Of a DNA stretch of 40,000 nucleotides, positions 15,798-26,372 are shown one piece after another. This DNA is from Undibacterium arcticum (GTDB taxonomy: Bacteria > Pseudomonadota > Gammaproteobacteria > Burkholderiales > Burkholderiaceae_D): NCBI RefSeq assembly GCF_042660705.1, contig NZ_JBHSUQ010000001.1, one strand, 5' to 3'. The first letter of the stretch is position 1, and the number at the start of each line of letters is the position of its first letter. Under the pieces are notes generated by a model, which was not told the DNA's origin, made no database searches, and worked only from the letters and a program-made list of their open reading frames with translations. A program made the translations under genes and the position numbers.

Positions 15798-16750
15798 ATG
15801 ACTAGCAGTCCTCTTCTTTCCGTCCGTGTGCAGGCAATGCGCTTCGAGGCAGCCGGCATCGTCAGCGTGGAACTGGTGTCGCCGGCGGGTACCGAACTGC
15901 CCGCCTTCGCCGCGGGCGCGCACATCGATCTGCATCTGCCGAACGGCGTGGTGCGCAGCTACTCGCTGTCGAACCCGCCGACCGAGCGGCACCGTTATGT
16001 GGTTGGCGTGCTGAATGACCGCAACAGCCGCGGCGGTTCGCGTTATGTGCACGAGCAGTTGCGCGTCGGCTCGACCATCGATATCTCGCTGCCGCGCAAT
16101 AACTTTCCGCTGGACGAATCGGCGCCGCATACGGTACTGATCGCGGGCGGCATCGGCATTACACCGATTTTTGCATGCTGAACCATCTGCGCAGCCTGGG
16201 CAAGTCGGTTGAACTTCTGTACTGCGCGCGCTCCCAGGCGGAAGCGGCGTTCTGCGACATGCTGCTGACGGACGGACGCGTGCAGACCCATTTTGACCAG
16301 GACAAAGGAGCGCCGCCTGATCTGCGCGCTTACCTTGCCGGCCAGTCCGCCACTGCGCATTTTTACTGCTGTGGACCGACGCCGATGCTGAACGCTTTCG
16401 AAAACATTTGCGCAGAGCTTGGTTTTCCGAACGTGCACATCGAGCGTTTCACCCCCGCGGAGCCGGTGGAGGCGGTCCAAGGCAGCGAGTATGTGGCCTA
16501 CCTGTCGCGCGCCAAGAAATCGGTCACGGTGCCGGCCGGAAAGTCGCTGCTGGACGCGCTGTTGGAAGCCGGAATGAGTGTCGACCACAGCTGCCGCGAA
16601 GGCGTGTGCGGTTCGTGCGAGACCAGGGTGCTGGAAGGCGTGCCTGACCATCGCGACGGCGTATTGACCAAGGCTGAGCGCGAATCCGGCAAGACCATGA
16701 TGGTGTGCGTGTCCGGTTGCAAGGGACAGCGCATGGTGCTCGATTTGTAA
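15798..16750 (+). pseudogene. PDR/VanB-type oxidoreductase (FMN/NAD-binding domain plus plant-type 2Fe-2S ferredoxin), split by a 1-nt frameshift as assembled
   Basis: ORFs 15798-16181 (RSYSLSN, GGIGITPIF) and 16175-16750 (MLNHL..., CREGVCGSCET) are the two halves of one reductase. The join lies at the T5 run 16168-16172; one extra T restores ...GITPIFCMLNHL... Confidence 0.85.
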
Positions 16751-16798: not shown

Positions 16799-16933
16799 GA
16801 CGCTAGTGGATTTTTTAAAACGTTGTTTTATAGGTGAAACGCGTTTGTCTTTATTCACCGCGGCAAGCGAAGGGCGAGCGGGTGAAATGTACACGGCGTG
16901 CGCCGTGCAATTCAATAAAAGGGGGGGAGTTTG

Positions 16934-17997
16934 ATGAAACAGGTACTTTTTGTCATCGCGGCTACAGGCATGACTGCAGGTGCGTTCGCGCAAAGCAACG
17001 TGACGGTCTACGGCAGCATGGACGCCGGCGTTGCATACGTTAACAACGTGGGCGGCAAGTCAGTCACGCGGCTGGACCAGGGCACCATGCAACCGGACCG
17101 GATTGGTTTCCGCGGCACTGAAGATCTGGGCGAGGGTTTGAAAGCCAATTACCAGCTGGAGGCCGGTTTTTCCACCGATACCGGCGCCAGCACCAATGCT
17201 AACCGCCTGTTCAACCGTGCCAGCACTATCGGCCTGTCGGGCAGCTTCGGTGCGGTGACCTTGGGTAACATGCCGGATATCGTATTCGACTATGCAGGCA
17301 AACTGAGCAACGGCTTCCAGCTCACCAATTTCTACCTGTTCCATCCGGGTAATCTGGATACGCTGGCTAATACCTTTCAGTTCAACAACGCCGTCCGCTA
17401 CACCTCGCCCAGTTTCTCCGGACTGACTATGAGCGCGATGTACGGTTTTGGTGAAGTCGCGGGCGACAACAGCAAGGGTCGCAACATCAGCGCGGGCGCC
17501 AACTATGTACAGGGTCCGTTGCGCCTGGTGCTGGCGTACTCGAAGCAAACGATCGCGTAGCGGGCTATGCCGGCACCTTTCTCGGCAGCCTTGGTCTGGG
17601 CAATGGCGCGACCGTATTCAACAGCCTGACGACACTGGCAACAGGCGCCGGCTACACGATCGGCGATGTGCGTCTGAACGGCTTGTACACACAGAACAAG
17701 ATCGAACTGCCGGCATCCAGCTTGACGCAAAAGAATGTCGATCTCGGCGCGAGCTGGCATTACAACCCGGCCAATGCGCTGAACCTCGGCTACACGCATT
17801 CCAAACTGGAAGGCGCGCGCTATAACCAGATCAGCGTGAGCAATGTCTACTCGCTGTCCAAGCGCACCGAAGTCTATGCGCAGGCGGCGTACCAGCGCGC
17901 CGGGGGCACTGCGCACTTTGCGATCCAGAACAACACCGGTGTATCCAGCAGTGACAGCCAATGGGTGACAACGGTAGGCATGCACCACTCGTTCTAG
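16934..17997 (+). pseudogene. Gram-negative trimeric porin (Burkholderia OmpC/Omp38-like), split by a 1-nt frameshift as assembled
   Basis: Signal peptide ...GAFA-QSNVTVYGSMDAG. C-terminal ...VGMHHSF. ORFs 16931-17560 and 17668-17997 join through the open frame ...NDRVAGYAGTFLG... if the A3 run at 17547-17549 is read as A4. Confidence 0.85.
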
Positions 17998-19102: not shown

Positions 19103-20107
19103 TCAGTCGGCTTCGCGCAACAGTCGCATGCCCACAAGCGTATAACGCGTGTCCGGCGAATTCCAGTTGCGATAGGACGACCGCGCATAGAACGACCATG
19201 TGTGCCATGAGCCGCCACGACGCACGCGCACGGCTCCCGTCGCTGGCCCCTTTGGATCGTCGAGCGGCGAGTTCGCATAATAGTGCTCACCATACCAATC
19301 TGCGGTCCATGCCCATGCATTGCCGTGCATATCATAGAGTCCGAATGCATTCGGCGCAAAGCTGCCGACGGGCGACGTGAATGCAAAACCATCGTGTCCT
19401 GCAAGCGCATAGATTGCCCACTTTTCCCAATTTTTCTGCGCATCGGCATCGAATATATTGGCGGCTTTCAACAGAGATTGCGGATCGTCTCCGGTGTAAT
19501 AGCGCGTTCGGGTACCGGCGCGTGCTGAATATTCCCATTCCGCTTCAGTCGGTAGGCGATAGGTCTTCCCTTCCGTCTCGCTCAGCCATTTGCTCATCGC
19601 TACCGCATCGTTCCAGGTGACGTTCACTACCGGATGATCATCGCCTTGCTGAAATCCGGGATTGCGCCATGAGTATTTCGGGTTACGTCCTTCAAATGCA
19701 TCGCCGCGCACCGATTTGGCCGGGTCATAGTCGGGGTTGTAACCATAGCCACCGGTACCGTCGGTTTCGGATTCAGGCTTGTAGCCTGACGCTTCCAGGA
19801 ATCGTCGGAACTGGCCGACGGTGACATGGTGCTGTCCGAGATAGAACGCACGCGTGATGCGCACCTTGTGTACCGGTGCTTCGTCGTCAAGTTCCAGGAA
19901 ACGCGCTCGCTCGTATTGTGGATAGGACTTGGCGAGGGAATCGGGCGACTCATCACTGCCCATCATGAATTCGCCGGCGGGAACCAACACGAACTTCATG
20001 CCGACCGAGTTCTCGATTTGTGTCGGTAATGTTGCGGCCGGTCCGATTGACCAGGCTGATGAAGCCATCAGCGACGTGAAAAGGAGAAGCGTTGTTCGTA
20101 GCTGCAT
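19103..20107 (-). CDS. secreted formylglycine-generating-enzyme (SUMF1/FGE-sulfatase) domain protein, TagR-like
   Basis: Signal peptide MQLRTTLLLFTSLMASSAWS. Motifs HPVVNVTWNDA, RLPTEAEWEYSARAG, GLYDMHGNAWAWTADWY, RVRRGGSW. Confidence 0.85.
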   Translation of the reverse strand: MQLRTTLLLFTSLMASSAWSIGPAATLPTQIENSVGMKFVLVPAGEFMMGSDESPDSLAKSYPQYERARFLELDDEAPVHKVRITRAFYLGQHHVTVGQFRRFLEASGYKPESETDGTGGYGYNPDYDPAKSVRGDAFEGRNPKYSWRNPGFQQGDDHPVVNVTWNDAVAMSKWLSETEGKTYRLPTEAEWEYSARAGTRTRYYTGDDPQSLLKAANIFDADAQKNWEKWAIYALAGHDGFAFTSPVGSFAPNAFGLYDMHGNAWAWTADWYGEHYYANSPLDDPKGPATGAVRVRRGGSWHTWSFYARSSYRNWNSPDTRYTLVGMRLLREAD

Positions 20108-20429: not shown

Positions 20430-21035
20430 TCAACGTTGATTACACAATATTGATGCGGTCTTTTCGCTACTTTTATTCTGCGAAGCGCATGGATACTGCG
20501 TGTGGACTGTTGATTTGTTATTTTGCTTTTTTGCCGGCCGGTTTGGCCGCCGCTTTTTTTTCGCCTGTTTGAAAACCGGCCCCCACAAAGGATGCTGTTT
20601 TTCACCGGCGTCCAGATCGAAGCTCGGATCAAGCTTCAAGGCTTTGTCGAATTGTTGGCGGCATAGCGTCATGCGTGTGGTCACACAATAACTGAAAGCC
20701 ATGGTTTTTAGTGCCGTCAGCTTCGTGCTCTTGTCAGCCGACCGGCTATCGGCGGGTAAGGAGAGTTTCTGGATCGCGCCGTTGAAATCGCCATTGTCGT
20801 ACAAAGTGAGGCCTTCTTTCAGTGAACTGTTCACTGCGGCCGGAACAACAATAGTTGCCACAGTCGGCGCAGGTGCCACCCTCGGTATCGTCGTCGGAGT
20901 GGAATTGTTGGCAACTGACTTCGGAGCCGGTTCGGCATTGTGGCGCATCTCTGCACAGCCTATCAAAGCGAAACACAGGATGACACATTGAGCAAAACCC
21001 AGGTTTGTCAGATTGGATGGCATGGTTGCTGTCAT
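20430..21035 (-). CDS. lipoprotein, TssQ-like; the C-terminal tail as assembled is probably out of frame, with a likely true stop at 20518
   Basis: Lipobox FALIGC. TPR-like core. Motif ...KTMAFSYCV...C..QFDKALKLDPSF...HPLWGPVF. Reading the T8 run (20554-20561) as 9 gives ...FKQAKKKAAAKPAGKKAK* ending at 20518. The ATG overlaps the reconstructed kinase stop (ATGA). Confidence 0.55.
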   Translation of the reverse strand: MTATMPSNLTNLGFAQCVILCFALIGCAEMRHNAEPAPKSVANNSTPTTIPRVAPAPTVATIVVPAAVNSSLKEGLTLYDNGDFNGAIQKLSLPADSRSADKSTKLTALKTMAFSYCVTTRMTLCRQQFDKALKLDPSFDLDAGEKQHPLWGPVFKQAKKKRRPNRPAKKQNNKSTVHTQYPCASQNKSSEKTASILCNQR

Positions 21036-22636
21036 TGCGATTTGTTGCCGTTGAAATCGTGTTCGAGCGTGGCCGGCTCGTTGTTGCTGACACGAATCTC
21101 TGTGACGTAGTCGGGGAAGGCGGGATTCACGATCCTAACCTTATATTTGCCCTCGGGCAGCGCGAGTTTCTTAATCGGTGGGCTTACTCCCTTTTCGACG
21201 CCGTTTTACATATACAACACCCCATGGCCTGACGCTGAGTTTGACATTGATGGCCTGCGCTGCAGCTTGGGTTGCCACATGCGCCGCGCTGGCAGCAGCG
21301 GTAGTTGTTACTGTACTTGCAACAGTACTTGCCACGGTTTTTTTCTGTCGGCAGTTTGTCTTGGGCTGCTCGCCGTTGCGCTGGTCGTTCCGCTGGCAGG
21401 GATGGTATGCAGATCGTCGGCCGATACCGTCGGTGCATTACTCGTGTTGGTGATCTCTGAAGCGGGAGTTGCTGCAACCAGCGGTGCCGGTGGATGGTCG
21501 ATGATAACTTGCTGATCCCTGCTACCCGGCGCAAATTTTGCAATAGCGACCAGGGTCAGTAGCGCCGCCGCAGCCACCGGCAGGGCGATTTTCCAACGCT
21601 TCCACCAGACCGTAGCGCCGGCAACTTCGACTTTCTTTTCGTCAGTTTCTAGAAGAGCAGAATTGATTAGAGGCGGCGCCGGTGAATAGGAAACCGCACC
21701 GGCCTTGACCCCGAGCAGGATACGAAATTCGGCGATGGTTTTCGGCCTTTGCTCCGGCAAAACTCTGAGACCGACATTGATCGCATCGAGGAAGGATTCG
21801 CTGTAAGCCGGGTAGTTGGCAGTGCTCAGATTTTCTATCGGATCCTTGATCATGCGCGCCACCGAGCTTGGCGGTGCCTTTTTCGCGATCAAGCTGTAAA
21901 TCACTGCGGACAAGGCGTAGATATCGGTCCATGGTCCCTGTGCCATGCTTTCGTCGTCGGCGTATTGCTCAACCGGGGCAAAGCGCGGTTTCAGGATCAC
22001 CGTCAGTGATTGCGGCATACCGCTGATGACTTGGCGCGCAGCGCCAAAATCCAGCAAAACCGGTGCGCCGTTTTTCTGGATCATGATGTTTTCCGGCGAA
22101 ATATCGCGATGCAGAACTTGCGCCTTGTAGAGCAAATCCAGCCCGGACAAAATCGACTGCAGCATTTTCTTTAACCAGGATTCGGTGATCAGCTCGGGTC
22201 GGTGTTCGGCCAGATGTTGCAAGGTTTGACCCTGGTAATACTGCATCGCCATGTAGGCGGTTTTGTTCTCTTCCCAAAAACGATACACCTTGACCAGTGC
22301 CGGATAATCGAATTGTGCCAGCAGGCGCGCCTCGTTGATATAGCTTTTCAGGCCGGTATCGAAAGCTTCCAGATGTTTGGCTGCGCGTACCAGGACGGTG
22401 TTGTGATGGCCGCGCGCGGCCAACGACATTGGCATGTACTCTTTGATGGCGACCGTGCGCTGCAGGCTGTGATCGAAAGCCATATAGACGATGCCGAAAC
22501 CACCTTCGCCAATCACGCCGGTGATTTCAAAATCGGACAGGCGCGTGCCGATGGGCAGGCAATTGGACGAGCCGCTTTTGCCGGGCAGCGGGCGAACTTT
22601 GTCTTCGGGGCTCGTGCTCATATCGTTACTTGGCAT
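21032..22636 (-). CDS. Hanks-type Ser/Thr protein kinase (PpkA-like): kinase domain, one TM helix, low-complexity linker, small PEGA-like periplasmic domain; two frameshifts in the 3' part as assembled
   Basis: GEGGFG, VAIKEY, HRDISPEN, DFGAAR, and TM helix WKIALPVAAAALLTLVAIA in ORF 21308-22636. Correcting the T7 run 21338-21344 and the T4 run 21204-21207 extends it through ...INVKLSVRPWGVVYVNGVEKGVSPPIKKLALPEGKYKVRIVNPAFPDYVTEIRVSNNEPATLEHDFNGNKSQ* to TGA 21032-21034. Confidence 0.8.
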
Positions 22637-23502
22637 TATTGCGCTTTGCTATTGGGAGATTGCGGCATCTGGTCAATCCAGATCGCAAATGCCGTCGTAT
22701 TATCGCGTACTGAAGTCGATTGGCCCTGATTGGCGCGGTGGTCGGCAATCCCTTGCATACGGCTCAGCCAGTCTTGTGCTGAACTCGCTTGCGTCAGCGC
22801 CTGCTCCATTTCGTCTTCAAGAACCCATTCCCACAAACCGTCACTGCAGAGCAGGAACGCATCGCCGGCCGCCAGCTCTTGCATCGTGCTGATGCAAGGG
22901 GTGTAATCGGTTTCGGCACCAATCGCGGCAATCAACACATGTCGATGCGGATGGATGCGCGATTGCTCGGCACCGCAATAACCGGCATCGATATATTGCT
23001 GCACCAAGCTGTGATCCTGACTCATCGCTTGAATTCTTTGCTGCCGGAAAAAATAAATGCGGCTATCGCCCAGATGCGCCCACAGCGCGGCGCCCCGCTG
23101 CGTATCGATCAGCAAGCTGACGACGGTGGTACTCATTTCGCGCAATTGCTGGTCGCTGTCTTGCGCTCGCGCCACGCTCTGGCTGGCGGCGTTCAAATAT
23201 GCGGATAACTTCTCTACGCTGAAAGCGGAATCGGCGGCAAACGCAGTGCTGATCGCCTTGATCGCAACTGCGGCAGCGATTTCACCACCCTTGTGTCCGC
23301 CTGCGCCATCGGCCACCAGAAAGCAATGCAGACCCTCATTGTGCAAACTGTCCAGTGCATCCTGATTACTGTCGCGGCCGCCGATCTGGCACATTTGTGC
23401 GGCATCGATCAGCCAACGCGTTTGCAACGCCCGGGCCATCGACTCACCCGCTACCGCTGCAGTTAAGTCATTTGCCAATGCATTTGCAAATTCGCCGCCC
23501 AT
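22636..23502 (-). CDS. PP2C-family Ser/Thr phosphatase (PppA-like)
   Basis: RDSNQDA, VADGAGGH, GDSR, CSDGL, and a late DN motif. The stop overlaps the kinase start (TAATG at 22634-22638). Confidence 0.85.
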   Translation of the reverse strand: MGGEFANALANDLTAAVAGESMARALQTRWLIDAAQMCQIGGRDSNQDALDSLHNEGLHCFLVADGAGGHKGGEIAAAVAIKAISTAFAADSAFSVEKLSAYLNAASQSVARAQDSDQQLREMSTTVVSLLIDTQRGAALWAHLGDSRIYFFRQQRIQAMSQDHSLVQQYIDAGYCGAEQSRIHPHRHVLIAAIGAETDYTPCISTMQELAAGDAFLLCSDGLWEWVLEDEMEQALTQASSAQDWLSRMQGIADHRANQGQSTSVRDNTTAFAIWIDQMPQSPNSKAQ

Positions 23503-23514
23503 GATTATCTTTCC

Positions 23515-24291
23515 TCAGCCTTGACCACCAGTTCGGACTTCAAAGAGTCGAACGGCGATTGCTCTTCGCAACGCGCGATTTCTTTCGTAGGCGTTCAGGA
23601 AAGCGTTGCCTATAGCCGGTTGTTCGTGATGTATGCCTTCCTTGCGGATTTGCCGGAACCTCACACCGTAGGCATCCCACATCTGGGCCTTGTGCCTGGA
23701 TGGGAACCATTTATCCATGCCAATTGGCTCCGGCACATGATCGCTGATATGGCGTGGATGAAAGCGATCCATCGCATCGCGCACACCGGCGCTAAAACCG
23801 GCAAGCATCGCTTTTTGATGCGCATACAAATCGCCGTAAGCCTCTTGCATCGCTTCCACCGGCTCCATGAAACCCGGCATTTTTTTGCGCAGCATCTGCA
23901 ATATGATGGTGTCGCTATCTTGTAAAAATTTCAATGGATTGTTGTTGCGCTTAACGACCACCGTCACATCGGCCTGCACTGCGCGCTTGACCATGGAACG
24001 GCTGGACAGCAAATTGTGCGTGCCGCGTATCGAGACCGATAGCAACTTGCCCAACATCTCCATCAATTCCGGCGTGAGTTTGGAACCAATCCCCCGTCCG
24101 GCCGGATCTTGCGCAATTCCCGCACCGCGCATAAATGCATCAAGCAATTCCTGATGAGCAGGGTCTTGACTGGCGATGTTGTTAACGTCGGCTCTCGGGT
24201 TCGGTTCGAACGAATGTTGATCTGACATCGGCGAGGCTCCTGATTGACGGTCATTACTTTGATGTGAGACGGTTTTGAGAGAGGGAATCAT
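23515..24291 (-). CDS. TagH/Fha1 C-terminal-domain-like protein that lacks the FHA domain
   Basis: ELLDAFMRGAGI, ...VVVKRNNNPLKF..., EAMQEAYGDLYAHQKAM, RFHPRHI, W..Y, and FLNAYE follow, from memory, the conserved pattern of the C-terminal half of T6SS FHA proteins. No FHA signature is present. The best start may be ATG 24228 (AGGAG 8 nt upstream). Confidence 0.55.
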   Translation of the reverse strand: MIPSLKTVSHQSNDRQSGASPMSDQHSFEPNPRADVNNIASQDPAHQELLDAFMRGAGIAQDPAGRGIGSKLTPELMEMLGKLLSVSIRGTHNLLSSRSMVKRAVQADVTVVVKRNNNPLKFLQDSDTIILQMLRKKMPGFMEPVEAMQEAYGDLYAHQKAMLAGFSAGVRDAMDRFHPRHISDHVPEPIGMDKWFPSRHKAQMWDAYGVRFRQIRKEGIHHEQPAIGNAFLNAYERNRALRRAIAVRLFEVRTGGQG

Positions 24292-24403
24292 CCTGACACA
24301 CTAGCTTAAATCATGCCATGCTGCAACATTCCGTGGGGCAAGCACTACAGTCCGACAGTTTTGAGTTATTTAGCAGGCTGCTGAAATGCTCCCAAAGCGG
24401 GCT

Positions 24404-24548
24404 AATGTCGTTCAGTTAAGGCATAACTACCAATTAGTGTCATTCCCGCGGAGGCGGGAATCCAGTGTCGTACGCACGCAAGCCACTGGATCCCCGCCTG
24501 TGCGGGGGCGACAAATTGGGGGGAATTGGCCCTTAACTGAACGGCATT
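24404..24548. repeat. MITE-like 145-bp element with 18-bp terminal inverted repeats and two internal hairpins
   Basis: AATGTCGTTCAGTTAAGG (24404-24421) against CCTTAACTGAACGGCATT (24531-24548), 17 of 18 complementary. Internal ATTCCCGC-GGAG-GCGGGAAT (24442-24461) and CCCCGC-CTGT-GCGGGG (24492-24507). Translations give the junk peptides ...IPASAGMT / SFPRRRES... typical of such repeats. Confidence 0.6.
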
Positions 24549-24769
24549 ACCCCATGCGGGCGGATTGCCGTGTTCGCAATGTTTGGTTTCACCCGGCACG
24601 TTCGCATCTTGAGTTTTTCGCCCATGGCGGGTCTGTTTTTAGCGATTCGGGGTTGATTTCTCCGCATTGCTCACTCCTCACGCCGCCTGTAGCCGTATTT
24701 GCCCCCAGAGAGCGCATTAGATCAAACCCAACAGAGGGCGGAAGTGGTCGAGCAATTCGGTGATACGAC

Positions 24770-25555
24770 TCATTTCTGCACAAAATGCACCGTCAGTGTG
24801 CCTAGGTCGCCATATTGAATGGCGATGTCTTCTCCTGCCGGCAGGTCAAAGCTCCCGGCATACGACCCTGTGATCACGGCTTGACCGGTTTGCAACCCCC
24901 GGCCTTTGCTGCGCAAAAACTCCGCCAGCCAATACAGTGGCGCGCGTGGATCGGCACTCGGATGGTGGCCCTCAAGTTGGGTTGCCTCGCCAGTTGCATG
25001 GGTGATCGTTATCGTCATGTCGCTGGCGGCGCTTGCTGGTCCGGCATCCACCTGCCGGCCGATGAACAGGCCCTGATTGAGCAAGCTATCCGCCAGATTT
25101 TCAGCAAAACTGGCGTCGGCAGCATCGCTGTAACGGCTGTCGATCAGCTCGAGCGCGAGGTGGGTACGCGCTATCGCGGCATCGACCTCGGCCGGCGTGT
25201 AGGGTAGGTCGCGCACGGGCAGGTCACGACCGAGGATGAAGGCGAGTTCCGGCTCCACCCGCGCCTGACCGGCGCGGACCCACACCGCGCATGGTGCGCT
25301 AGTGTGGACGGTGCTGGCATAGATAGGCGCCAAGACCAAGCGCCCGGCAGCGGGCAAGCCGCACTTCCATGCAGCGATGCCATCGCCGAGTTGCTCGCTG
25401 ACGGCGGCTTGTATGGCCAATGCAGCGTCAAGATTGGATGGCCGACAGGACTCCGGCAGGCGAGGCCCTTGCTCGCCCGACCTGCGGCGCACCACCAGGA
25501 TGGTTGCGGCAGTTGAAGCGACATGGTCGGGTTGATGATTCAGACGGTATCCCAT
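24770..25555 (-). CDS. 2-keto-4-pentenoate hydratase / FAH-family hydratase (MhpD-like)
   Basis: 261 aa with core-like high G+C. Overall pattern (...AIQAAV..., EPELAFILG, ...ALELIDSR..., VITGSY...) matches the MhpD/XylJ hydratase family. Confidence 0.7.
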   Translation of the reverse strand: MGYRLNHQPDHVASTAATILVVRRRSGEQGPRLPESCRPSNLDAALAIQAAVSEQLGDGIAAWKCGLPAAGRLVLAPIYASTVHTSAPCAVWVRAGQARVEPELAFILGRDLPVRDLPYTPAEVDAAIARTHLALELIDSRYSDAADASFAENLADSLLNQGLFIGRQVDAGPASAASDMTITITHATGEATQLEGHHPSADPRAPLYWLAEFLRSKGRGLQTGQAVITGSYAGSFDLPAGEDIAIQYGDLGTLTVHFVQK

Positions 25556-26372
25556 GTCTTTCTCGTTCTGATATAGGAGTCGTCATTGTAGAAAGGAGCA
25601 AACACTTCGCTGAAGAATGGAATGTCCTCACTCCCGGTTTGCATTGCTGTGTATTGAAGAGAGGACAGTAACTCAACCCAATAGCGGATGACTTGGAGTA
25701 CATATAGTTGGCGAAAAGGGGCAACGGCAGTCTGCATTCCGGTTCTACGGCTTGCATCTTCAACGTCTGTGATTTCGTCGCCGGTCTCAGACGTATGTCT
25801 GACCATGGCGTGCGGGGCGAGCATCGCGGCGATGGCGGTAGCGTTGCCATCGATGGCTTCCTTTTTGTTCCTCGATACGCGTGTCGCGTATAGCGGTATG
25901 TCTACTTGCGTGAACCATGACGCAATGGGATCACTTTGCCGTTTCGCGCCAACAATCAGATCAATGTTGGAATAGCGATCACCCTGCGCAAACTCTGCCA
26001 GGATTCTTAGAATGGCTTGATGGATGGGGTCATCGAGTTTGCGCAAAAAAAACTGCATGGATATCGACCGCTTCGAAGCTACCACCAGTGACTTCTCGTA
26101 GATGACACCAATCTTGTGTCCGATTTCGTTTTTTTCATGTAGTTGAAATCCGGGAACTGGCCGTTGTGATCAATGAAATGATCGAGCATAAGGCAGAGCT
26201 TTCCGATTCGCTCAAGGCCAGTAGACAGGCTTGTGAATGCTTGGAAATAAACACCCTTGGCTGCGTAGTTGGCGTTTCTAATTTGCGTAGCGCCTGAGCC
26301 AAGCATCTCCTTTGTGAATTGTGCCTCCTTGATCAGAGCATTGAAGGTCTCAGTAAACATGTACGTCGCCAT
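25540..26372 (-). pseudogene. hypothetical protein (about 275 aa once joined), frameshifted in a T7 run as assembled
   Basis: ORFs 26079-26372 and 25540-26085 join at T7 26129-26135 to read ...DFNYMKKNEIGHKIGVIYEKSLVVASKR... Low G+C. No family recognised; KNEIGH faintly resembles a HEPN-type xNxxxH motif. Confidence 0.5.

Follow-up and report, generated by a model that had tools for sequence, protein, structure and literature searches.

Genomic organization of the locus

The window, by which we mean the whole 40,000-nucleotide stretch of Undibacterium arcticum DNA analysed here, carries on its minus strand a gene of the TagH/Fha family, which is followed by the genes of a PppA-like PP2C Ser/Thr phosphatase, a PpkA-like membrane kinase of the Hanks type and a lipoprotein of the TssQ family, in this order (Table 1). 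The junctions between the four genes are tight, and the kinase TGA and the lipoprotein ATG overlap as ATGA at 21032-21035. The enzyme pair known from the T6SS threonine-phosphorylation pathway, a Hanks kinase and a PP2C phosphatase, is encoded directly beside the TagH-like gene. The cassette has a G+C content of 51-56%, compared with about 62% in its flanks, and a sigma-70 promoter scan upstream of the operon returned no match.

To place this arrangement in the family, one genome per species of Oxalobacteraceae was scanned, which yielded 80 loci. Downstream of the TagH gene, a PP2C phosphatase was present in 74/80, a Hanks kinase of about 500-630 aa in 71/80 and a TssQ-family lipoprotein of 155-200 aa in 65/80; the loci without one or more of these partners have short or truncated flanks, and most of those without the lipoprotein run off the contig end. 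In the relatives, the cassette is flanked by unrelated genes of housekeeping or accessory type and not by T6SS genes. The TagH-like gene opens an operon of four genes that is conserved across Oxalobacteraceae. The co-oriented gene that follows the lipoprotein gene in the window encodes an FGE-sulfatase-domain protein, and residues 127-359 of TagR belong to the same FGE-sulfatase superfamily (PMC13713981). Since no homologue of it was found in any of the 80 related loci, this gene is probably a neighbour and not a component of the cassette. As a separate observation, the C-terminal tail of the TssQ lipoprotein (window 20430-20560) is rich in Lys and Arg, unlike that of the relatives, and the protein has 201 aa compared with 155-190 aa there; a frameshift may be the cause.

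Table 1. Features of the cassette and its surroundings in the window
Feature	Position	Strand	Evidence and remarks
FHA-less TagH/Fha-family gene (T6SS_FHA_C domain only)	23515..24228	-	237 aa as assembled; PF20232 1e-45
Shine-Dalgarno AGGAG	24237..24241	-	8 nt 5' of ATG 24228; conserved in the close relative L106
2-bp deletion site relative to L106	23586..23587	-	TAC--GAAAG vs TACGAGAAAG; pairwise DNA alignment
PP2C Ser/Thr phosphatase (PppA-like)	22636..23502	-	PF13672 2.8e-17; Stp1/IreP-type PP2C 1.6e-48, below the model's 230-bit cut-off
Membrane Hanks-type Ser/Thr kinase (PpkA-like), one TM helix, periplasmic PEGA domain	21032..22636	-	Pkinase 1.9e-34; PEGA 2.6e-6
TssQ-family lipoprotein	20430..21035	-	NF038027 1.5e-31, above cut-off; signal peptide and lipobox LIGC
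FGE-sulfatase-domain protein	19103..20107	-	PF03781 1.3e-59; co-oriented, 322-bp gap to the TssQ gene
MITE-like nested inverted-repeat element	24399..24553	no strand	Upstream of the operon; also upstream of the L106 orthologue
Hydratase-family gene	24770-25555		Next gene upstream of the TagH-like ORF; gap 478 bp

Domain content and start codon of the TagH-like gene

An open reading frame of 258 codons exists as read at 23515-24291. PF20232 (T6SS_FHA_C) is the sole Pfam match of its product, covering residues 70-237 and profile positions 12-179 of 180, and the NCBIfam model of TagH, TIGR03354, matches over profile positions 204-418 of 420 only, with a score of 138.5 bits that lies above the cut-off of 120.25. 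The Pfam search gave no match to the FHA model PF00498 in the product, and the NNNPLKF motif is present. The similarity to the C-terminal domain of TagH is thus significant, and the sequence-only reading, which had recognized only a C-terminal-type domain in this gene, was right in this respect. It had also reported stop codons in all frames upstream, and one per frame was indeed found within 25 nt 5' of ATG 24291 (TGA 24313-24311, TAA 24308-24306, and TAG 24303-24301).

Two lengths had been proposed for the protein, 258 or 237 aa, and the comparison with relatives favours the shorter. The alignment places an invariant Met at ATG 24228 in 16 FHA-less homologues, while L106, a close relative with about 93% DNA identity in the alignable parts, has TTG in place of the window's ATG 24291. 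Because of these two observations we assign the true start to ATG 24228, which gives 237 aa as assembled, and discard the 258-aa start. FHA-less orthologues that share this N-terminus therefore do exist in related genomes.

The 3' end of the gene needs a small correction. A 2-bp deletion relative to L106 throws 24 C-terminal residues out of frame (in the L106 frame, 26 codons up to the stop). The assembled C-terminal tail departs from the family consensus, which the corrected frame follows up to its stop, TAA 23507-23505, two bases short of the phosphatase ATG. The gene, running from ATG 24228 to about 23505 and encoding roughly 240 aa, belongs to the TagH/Fha family and naturally lacks both the FHA domain and the linker; its product starts with a short disordered N-terminus and a single short helix, and the rest is the helical T6SS_FHA_C domain.

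FHA-less TagH proteins in Oxalobacteraceae

A protein search returned dozens of homologues of 205-230 aa that carry PF20232 alone, for instance from Undibacterium sp. TJN25, U. terreum and Massilia, together with FHA-bearing homologues of 310-410 aa. Of the TagH genes in the 80 Oxalobacteraceae loci, 27 lack the FHA domain and 53 have it; when ten borderline cases among the FHA-less genes were extended back to the upstream stop codon, Pfam detected only PF20232 in 10/10. In a family-wide profile search, 4489 cluster representatives matched, and among the top 150 roughly 10-15 do not have the length for an FHA domain. In the literature searched, FHA-less TagH proteins are nowhere described.

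A tree computed from the C-domain places the window gene with its L106 orthologue in an exclusively FHA-less clade of 10 sequences (SH-aLRT 95), and the sister groups of this clade are FHA-bearing proteins. Mapping FHA presence and absence onto the tree needs five changes, at least three of which are forced by well-supported branches. A single origin of the FHA-less state was rejected (delta lnL 117, AU p = 5e-9) in an AU test that was run after the tree had been seen, with the FHA-less group defined by domain content. The topology hence indicates that the TagH gene of this cassette has lost its FHA domain several times independently, and that the copy in the window belongs to one old FHA-less clade. 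Of the two origins that the sequence-only reading had considered, a naturally FHA-less family and a deletion associated with a repeat, these data speak for the former. Besides, two TagH-like genes were observed around a single cassette in Undibacterium sp. Ren11W (L076:7524-13590); they lie on the same strand at a distance of about 3.7 kb, and the second is very divergent.

A conserved threonine and the predicted structure

The AlphaFold2 model of the protein, built on a 77-sequence alignment, is all-helical (mean pLDDT 78.9, pTM 0.65), with a disordered N-terminus, a short helix spanning residues 23-35 and, from residue 53 onward, long helices. Between helices, residues 85-99 make up a loop of low confidence, which contains Thr89 and RNNNPLKF. 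Thr89 (Thr110 of the 258-aa ORF) is invariant in 77/77 sequences, within the loop motif ADVT-x6-NNNPLKF, and in the alignment it falls opposite T640 and T639 of two family members of 777 aa; the equivalence with the Acidovorax citrulli site is one of motif and position only. In a 497-aa family member the aligned Thr lies at position 356, compared with the published position 362 for Fha1. In A. citrulli, the 777-aa Fha has its conserved phosphosite at T640, and the T640A mutant is non-functional (PMC12607579), while T438 of Serratia marcescens Fha and T362 of Pseudomonas aeruginosa Fha1 are the sole PpkA targets in these species (PMC6082577; PMC5995506; PMC13713981). By alignment, Thr89 is thus a candidate phospho-acceptor, and the earlier proposal that the retained part carries both the phosphorylated threonine and the NNPLKF domain gains support.

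When the model was compared with the PDB by Foldseek, the best match had an E value no lower than 1.2, and a profile search of PDB sequences matched the FHA part of the profile only, so that no solved structure of the C-domain was found there. The C-terminal domain of A. citrulli Fha alone is membrane-associated via an amphipathic helix and pulls down TssE and TssL (bioRxiv 10.1101/2023.12.21.572528); in an 18-residue hydrophobic-moment scan of the window protein, no single amphipathic helix comparable to that one stood out. In the same species, deletion of the FHA domain impairs but does not abolish T6SS killing, and deletion of the disordered linker, which is indispensable for T6SS assembly, abolishes it (bioRxiv 10.1101/2023.12.21.572528). 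Because the linker is indispensable in A. citrulli and loss of the FHA domain impairs assembly, a protein that has neither of them may not be doing the canonical job.

T6SS occurrence and selection on the cassette

TssB, TssC, Hcp, TssM and TssF were not found in this genome (a 3-contig, 5.74-Mb assembly), and no T6SS-related genes were found elsewhere in the window. The sequence-only reading had assumed the canonical T6SS pathway, an assumption that does not fit a genome in which the T6SS core genes are not detectable. In a sample of 151 genomes of the same family, TssC was found in 63/151 and the TagH C-domain in about 46/151. Wherever contigs allow, the distance from TagH to TssQ is at most about 4 kb, and where a T6SS exists the cassette is usually far from it. 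TssC was not found in 17 C-domain-bearing genomes, and in 14 of these 17 TssM was not found either. The cassettes of these 14 genomes are all FHA-bearing, and several of the genomes reach 100% completeness by marker genes (the cassettes L113 and L114, at G057:C30 and G094:C151, as well as L111, L112, and L115, lie in genomes with neither TssC nor TssM). Among genomes with FHA-less cassettes, only 1/11 is without both TssC and TssM, namely the window's own, and TssC is mostly present, on another contig, in the closest FHA-less relatives of the window gene. U. terreum and Massilia atriviolacea both have FHA-less proteins, and TssC was found in U. terreum. Since all 14 genomes without TssC and TssM are FHA-bearing and the FHA-less relatives are mostly TssC-positive, FHA loss and T6SS loss are not linked, and the whole cassette is only loosely tied to T6SS.

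The dN/dS of the window gene against its L106 orthologue is 0.25 over 213 codons. For two genomes of one genus in which neither TssC nor TssM was found, dN/dS values, approximate because dS is high (about 1.2-1.7), are 0.083 for TagH (FHA part 0.044, linker 0.25, C-domain 0.044), 0.10 for the phosphatase and 0.12 for the kinase. The cassette is maintained even where a T6SS is not found.

Alternative explanations

We were concerned whether the FHA domain is truly missing, and if so, whether it disappeared recently. An HMM trained on the first 120 residues of cassette homologues with an FHA domain was run on six-frame translations; its best score in 24100-26200 was 1.6 bits, and the translated whole genome gave no match, so that no FHA-encoding fragment was found upstream or elsewhere. 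Homopolymer indels do occur in this assembly and could in principle mask an FHA domain encoded upstream, yet the ORF-to-hydratase gap of 478 bp is mostly occupied by the repeat element, no frame of the 24100-26200 region scores above 1.6 bits, and the upstream region matches base for base that of L106, an independent assembly; we regard such an artefact as practically out of the question. The upstream inverted repeat, which had been described as a MITE-like element at 24404-24548, is real, and its arms span 24399-24553: the outer arms of 23 nt (24399-24421 and 24531-24553) are 91% complementary, and the inner arms measure 37 nt. It lies 171 bp 5' of the true start in an accessory region of lower G+C content, which would suit the reading that this genome lost its FHA module recently, through a deletion caused by, or associated with, the element. 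However, the genome holds only two full copies (the other, 78.5% identical, at C1:1877243-1877390), an FHA remnant is absent in every frame, and the element also precedes the L106 orthologue, which has the same FHA-less start. The FHA-less state and this start are moreover common to orthologues that are only 52-58% identical. We consider the repeat-associated deletion advanced by the sequence-only reading very improbable, as the loss of the FHA domain must be far older than the local arrangement if orthologues at 52-58% identity are FHA-less as well; by this comparison, it predates the split from the 52-58% identical Undibacterium orthologues. A native FHA-less protein is also conceivable that works with a separate FHA protein in trans. 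The generic FHA model detected five domains in four ORFs elsewhere in the genome, all in unrelated contexts, and since these proteins sit in unrelated modules and none fits the cassette-type FHA model, this candidate was rejected.

A natural FHA-less protein could still be the decaying remnant of a system that became useless when the T6SS was lost, with the 2-bp deletion and the kinase frameshifts as real mutations on the way to a pseudogene. The kinase gene is split by two frameshifts, at an A7 run (21338-21344) and an A4 run (21204-21207), so that the assembled ORF stops at 21308; the PEGA domain is encoded beyond this stop, and tblastn with the kinases of relatives recovers the kinase C-terminus in the shifted frames. 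Decay would account for this double split, for a deletion in the TagH-like gene that does not lie in a homopolymer, for T6SS core genes that were not found in the genome while the closest FHA-less relatives do have TssC elsewhere, and for the copy of a second strain (P0003), which is also frameshifted, at other positions. Against it, both kinase frameshifts fall in A-runs, and an unrelated ferredoxin-reductase gene (15798-16750) is split into the ORFs 15798-16181 and 16175-16750 beside a T5 run (16168-16172). Marker-gene completeness is only 89.7% for an assembly of three contigs. Because the kinase shifts lie in A-runs, the reductase is split at T5 and completeness is this low, the kinase and reductase frameshifts point to assembly-wide homopolymer errors, while the 2-bp deletion, being outside any homopolymer, may be real. 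The dN/dS of 0.25 against L106 also argues against decay, as do the 14 other family genomes that keep the cassette without TssC or TssM and in which, for the two genomes compared, purifying selection is strong. On balance we deem a decaying remnant unlikely.

Two further observations from these searches may be recorded. A porin gene at 16931-17825 also appears broken, suggestive of assembly-wide homopolymer indels. In the same genome, a 208-aa FHA protein adjoins a second PP2C phosphatase (L002, G000 C1:4360585-4363773), forming another Ser/Thr signalling pair, and three FHA-domain proteins are encoded within 20 kb (L003-L006, G000 C1:2475150-2496789), namely an FHA protein of 279 aa next to a GAF/HD-domain gene, a TPR protein with two FHA domains and a fusion of adenylate cyclase with FHA. 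As for the repeat itself, the L106 element (L106:420-880) holds a 60-bp tandem expansion of a GAATGACACTG-like unit.

Proposed function of the cassette

The reading that we regard as probable is that of a natural FHA-less TagH protein, encoded by the first gene of a conserved kinase/phosphatase/TssQ cassette, for which we propose a reversible phospho-switch acting on a helical domain close to the membrane. An envelope signal would be sensed through the PEGA ectodomain of the kinase, possibly with the help of the lipoprotein, and would activate the kinase, which would phosphorylate Thr89 in the exposed ADVT-x6-NNNPLKF loop; the PP2C phosphatase would reverse this modification. Because there is no FHA domain for phospho-threonine docking, the kinase would have to recognize its substrate by direct contact, helped by the location of both proteins at the inner membrane. 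In relatives that have a T6SS elsewhere, the switch might act on that T6SS in trans. No T6SS is detectable in the genome studied here; in it, as in the 14 family genomes that lack TssC and TssM, either the output would have to be T6SS-independent or the module would be orphaned.

A broader speculation, to which we give somewhat less than an even chance, is that the Oxalobacteraceae cassette as a whole is a T6SS-independent envelope-signalling module, in which the phospho-regulated T6SS_FHA_C domain acts on a non-T6SS target at the inner membrane and the FHA domain is dispensable. If this were true, the dispensability of the FHA domain would explain its repeated loss, and the "T6SS-associated" label of the T6SS_FHA_C domain would be too narrow.

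Comparison with known systems

In the standard model of Fha/TagH function, the FHA domain and the disordered linker dock and scaffold, and the C-terminal domain is mainly the carrier of the phospho-threonine. The cassettes described here depart from this division of labour, as the FHA domain and linker were repeatedly removed while the C-domain, its threonine, the kinase and the phosphatase were kept under purifying selection, and in many genomes we could find no T6SS. This retention suggests that the C-domain has a function of its own. FHA-less TagH would thus offer a minimal natural substrate for studying how PpkA-type kinases recognize Fha without phospho-threonine docking. For genome annotation, an automatic "TagH, T6SS-associated" label in Oxalobacteraceae does not imply that a T6SS is present.

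The closest parallel is the FHA-bearing cassette of other Oxalobacteraceae, such as Collimonas, Undibacterium aquatile and Paucimonas, with a TagH of about 310-420 aa. It has the same four-gene order, likewise lies away from T6SS cores and shares 40-50% identity in the C-domain. It retains an FHA domain, though a divergent one, and roughly 100 residues of linker, whereas the proteins of the window's clade start about 25 residues before the first conserved helix.

With TagH/Fha1/Fha (TIGR03354), which serves P. aeruginosa, S. marcescens and A. citrulli as scaffold and PpkA substrate in the T6SS threonine-phosphorylation pathway, the window protein has in common the homologous T6SS_FHA_C domain, genes for a PpkA-like kinase and a PppA-like PP2C phosphatase alongside and, by alignment, the putative acceptor Thr in the ADVT...NNNPLKF loop, which corresponds to 639/640 of the two 777-aa members. 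It differs in having neither the FHA domain nor the disordered linker, and its gene does not lie in or near a T6SS cluster, in a genome without T6SS core genes. The TagQRST-PpkA-PppA sensor system of the P. aeruginosa H1-T6SS resembles the cassette in that it combines a membrane Hanks kinase and a PP2C phosphatase with an outer-membrane lipoprotein, and an FGE-sulfatase-domain protein, the domain type of TagR, adjoins the cassette in the window. However, that FGE gene recurs in 0/80 related cassettes, the lipoprotein is of the TssQ family (NF038027), a small PEGA domain forms the ectodomain of the kinase, and no TagS/TagT-like ABC genes occur in or beside the operon. Taken together, the locus presents an FHA-less, linker-less TagH in a free-standing phospho-signalling cassette.
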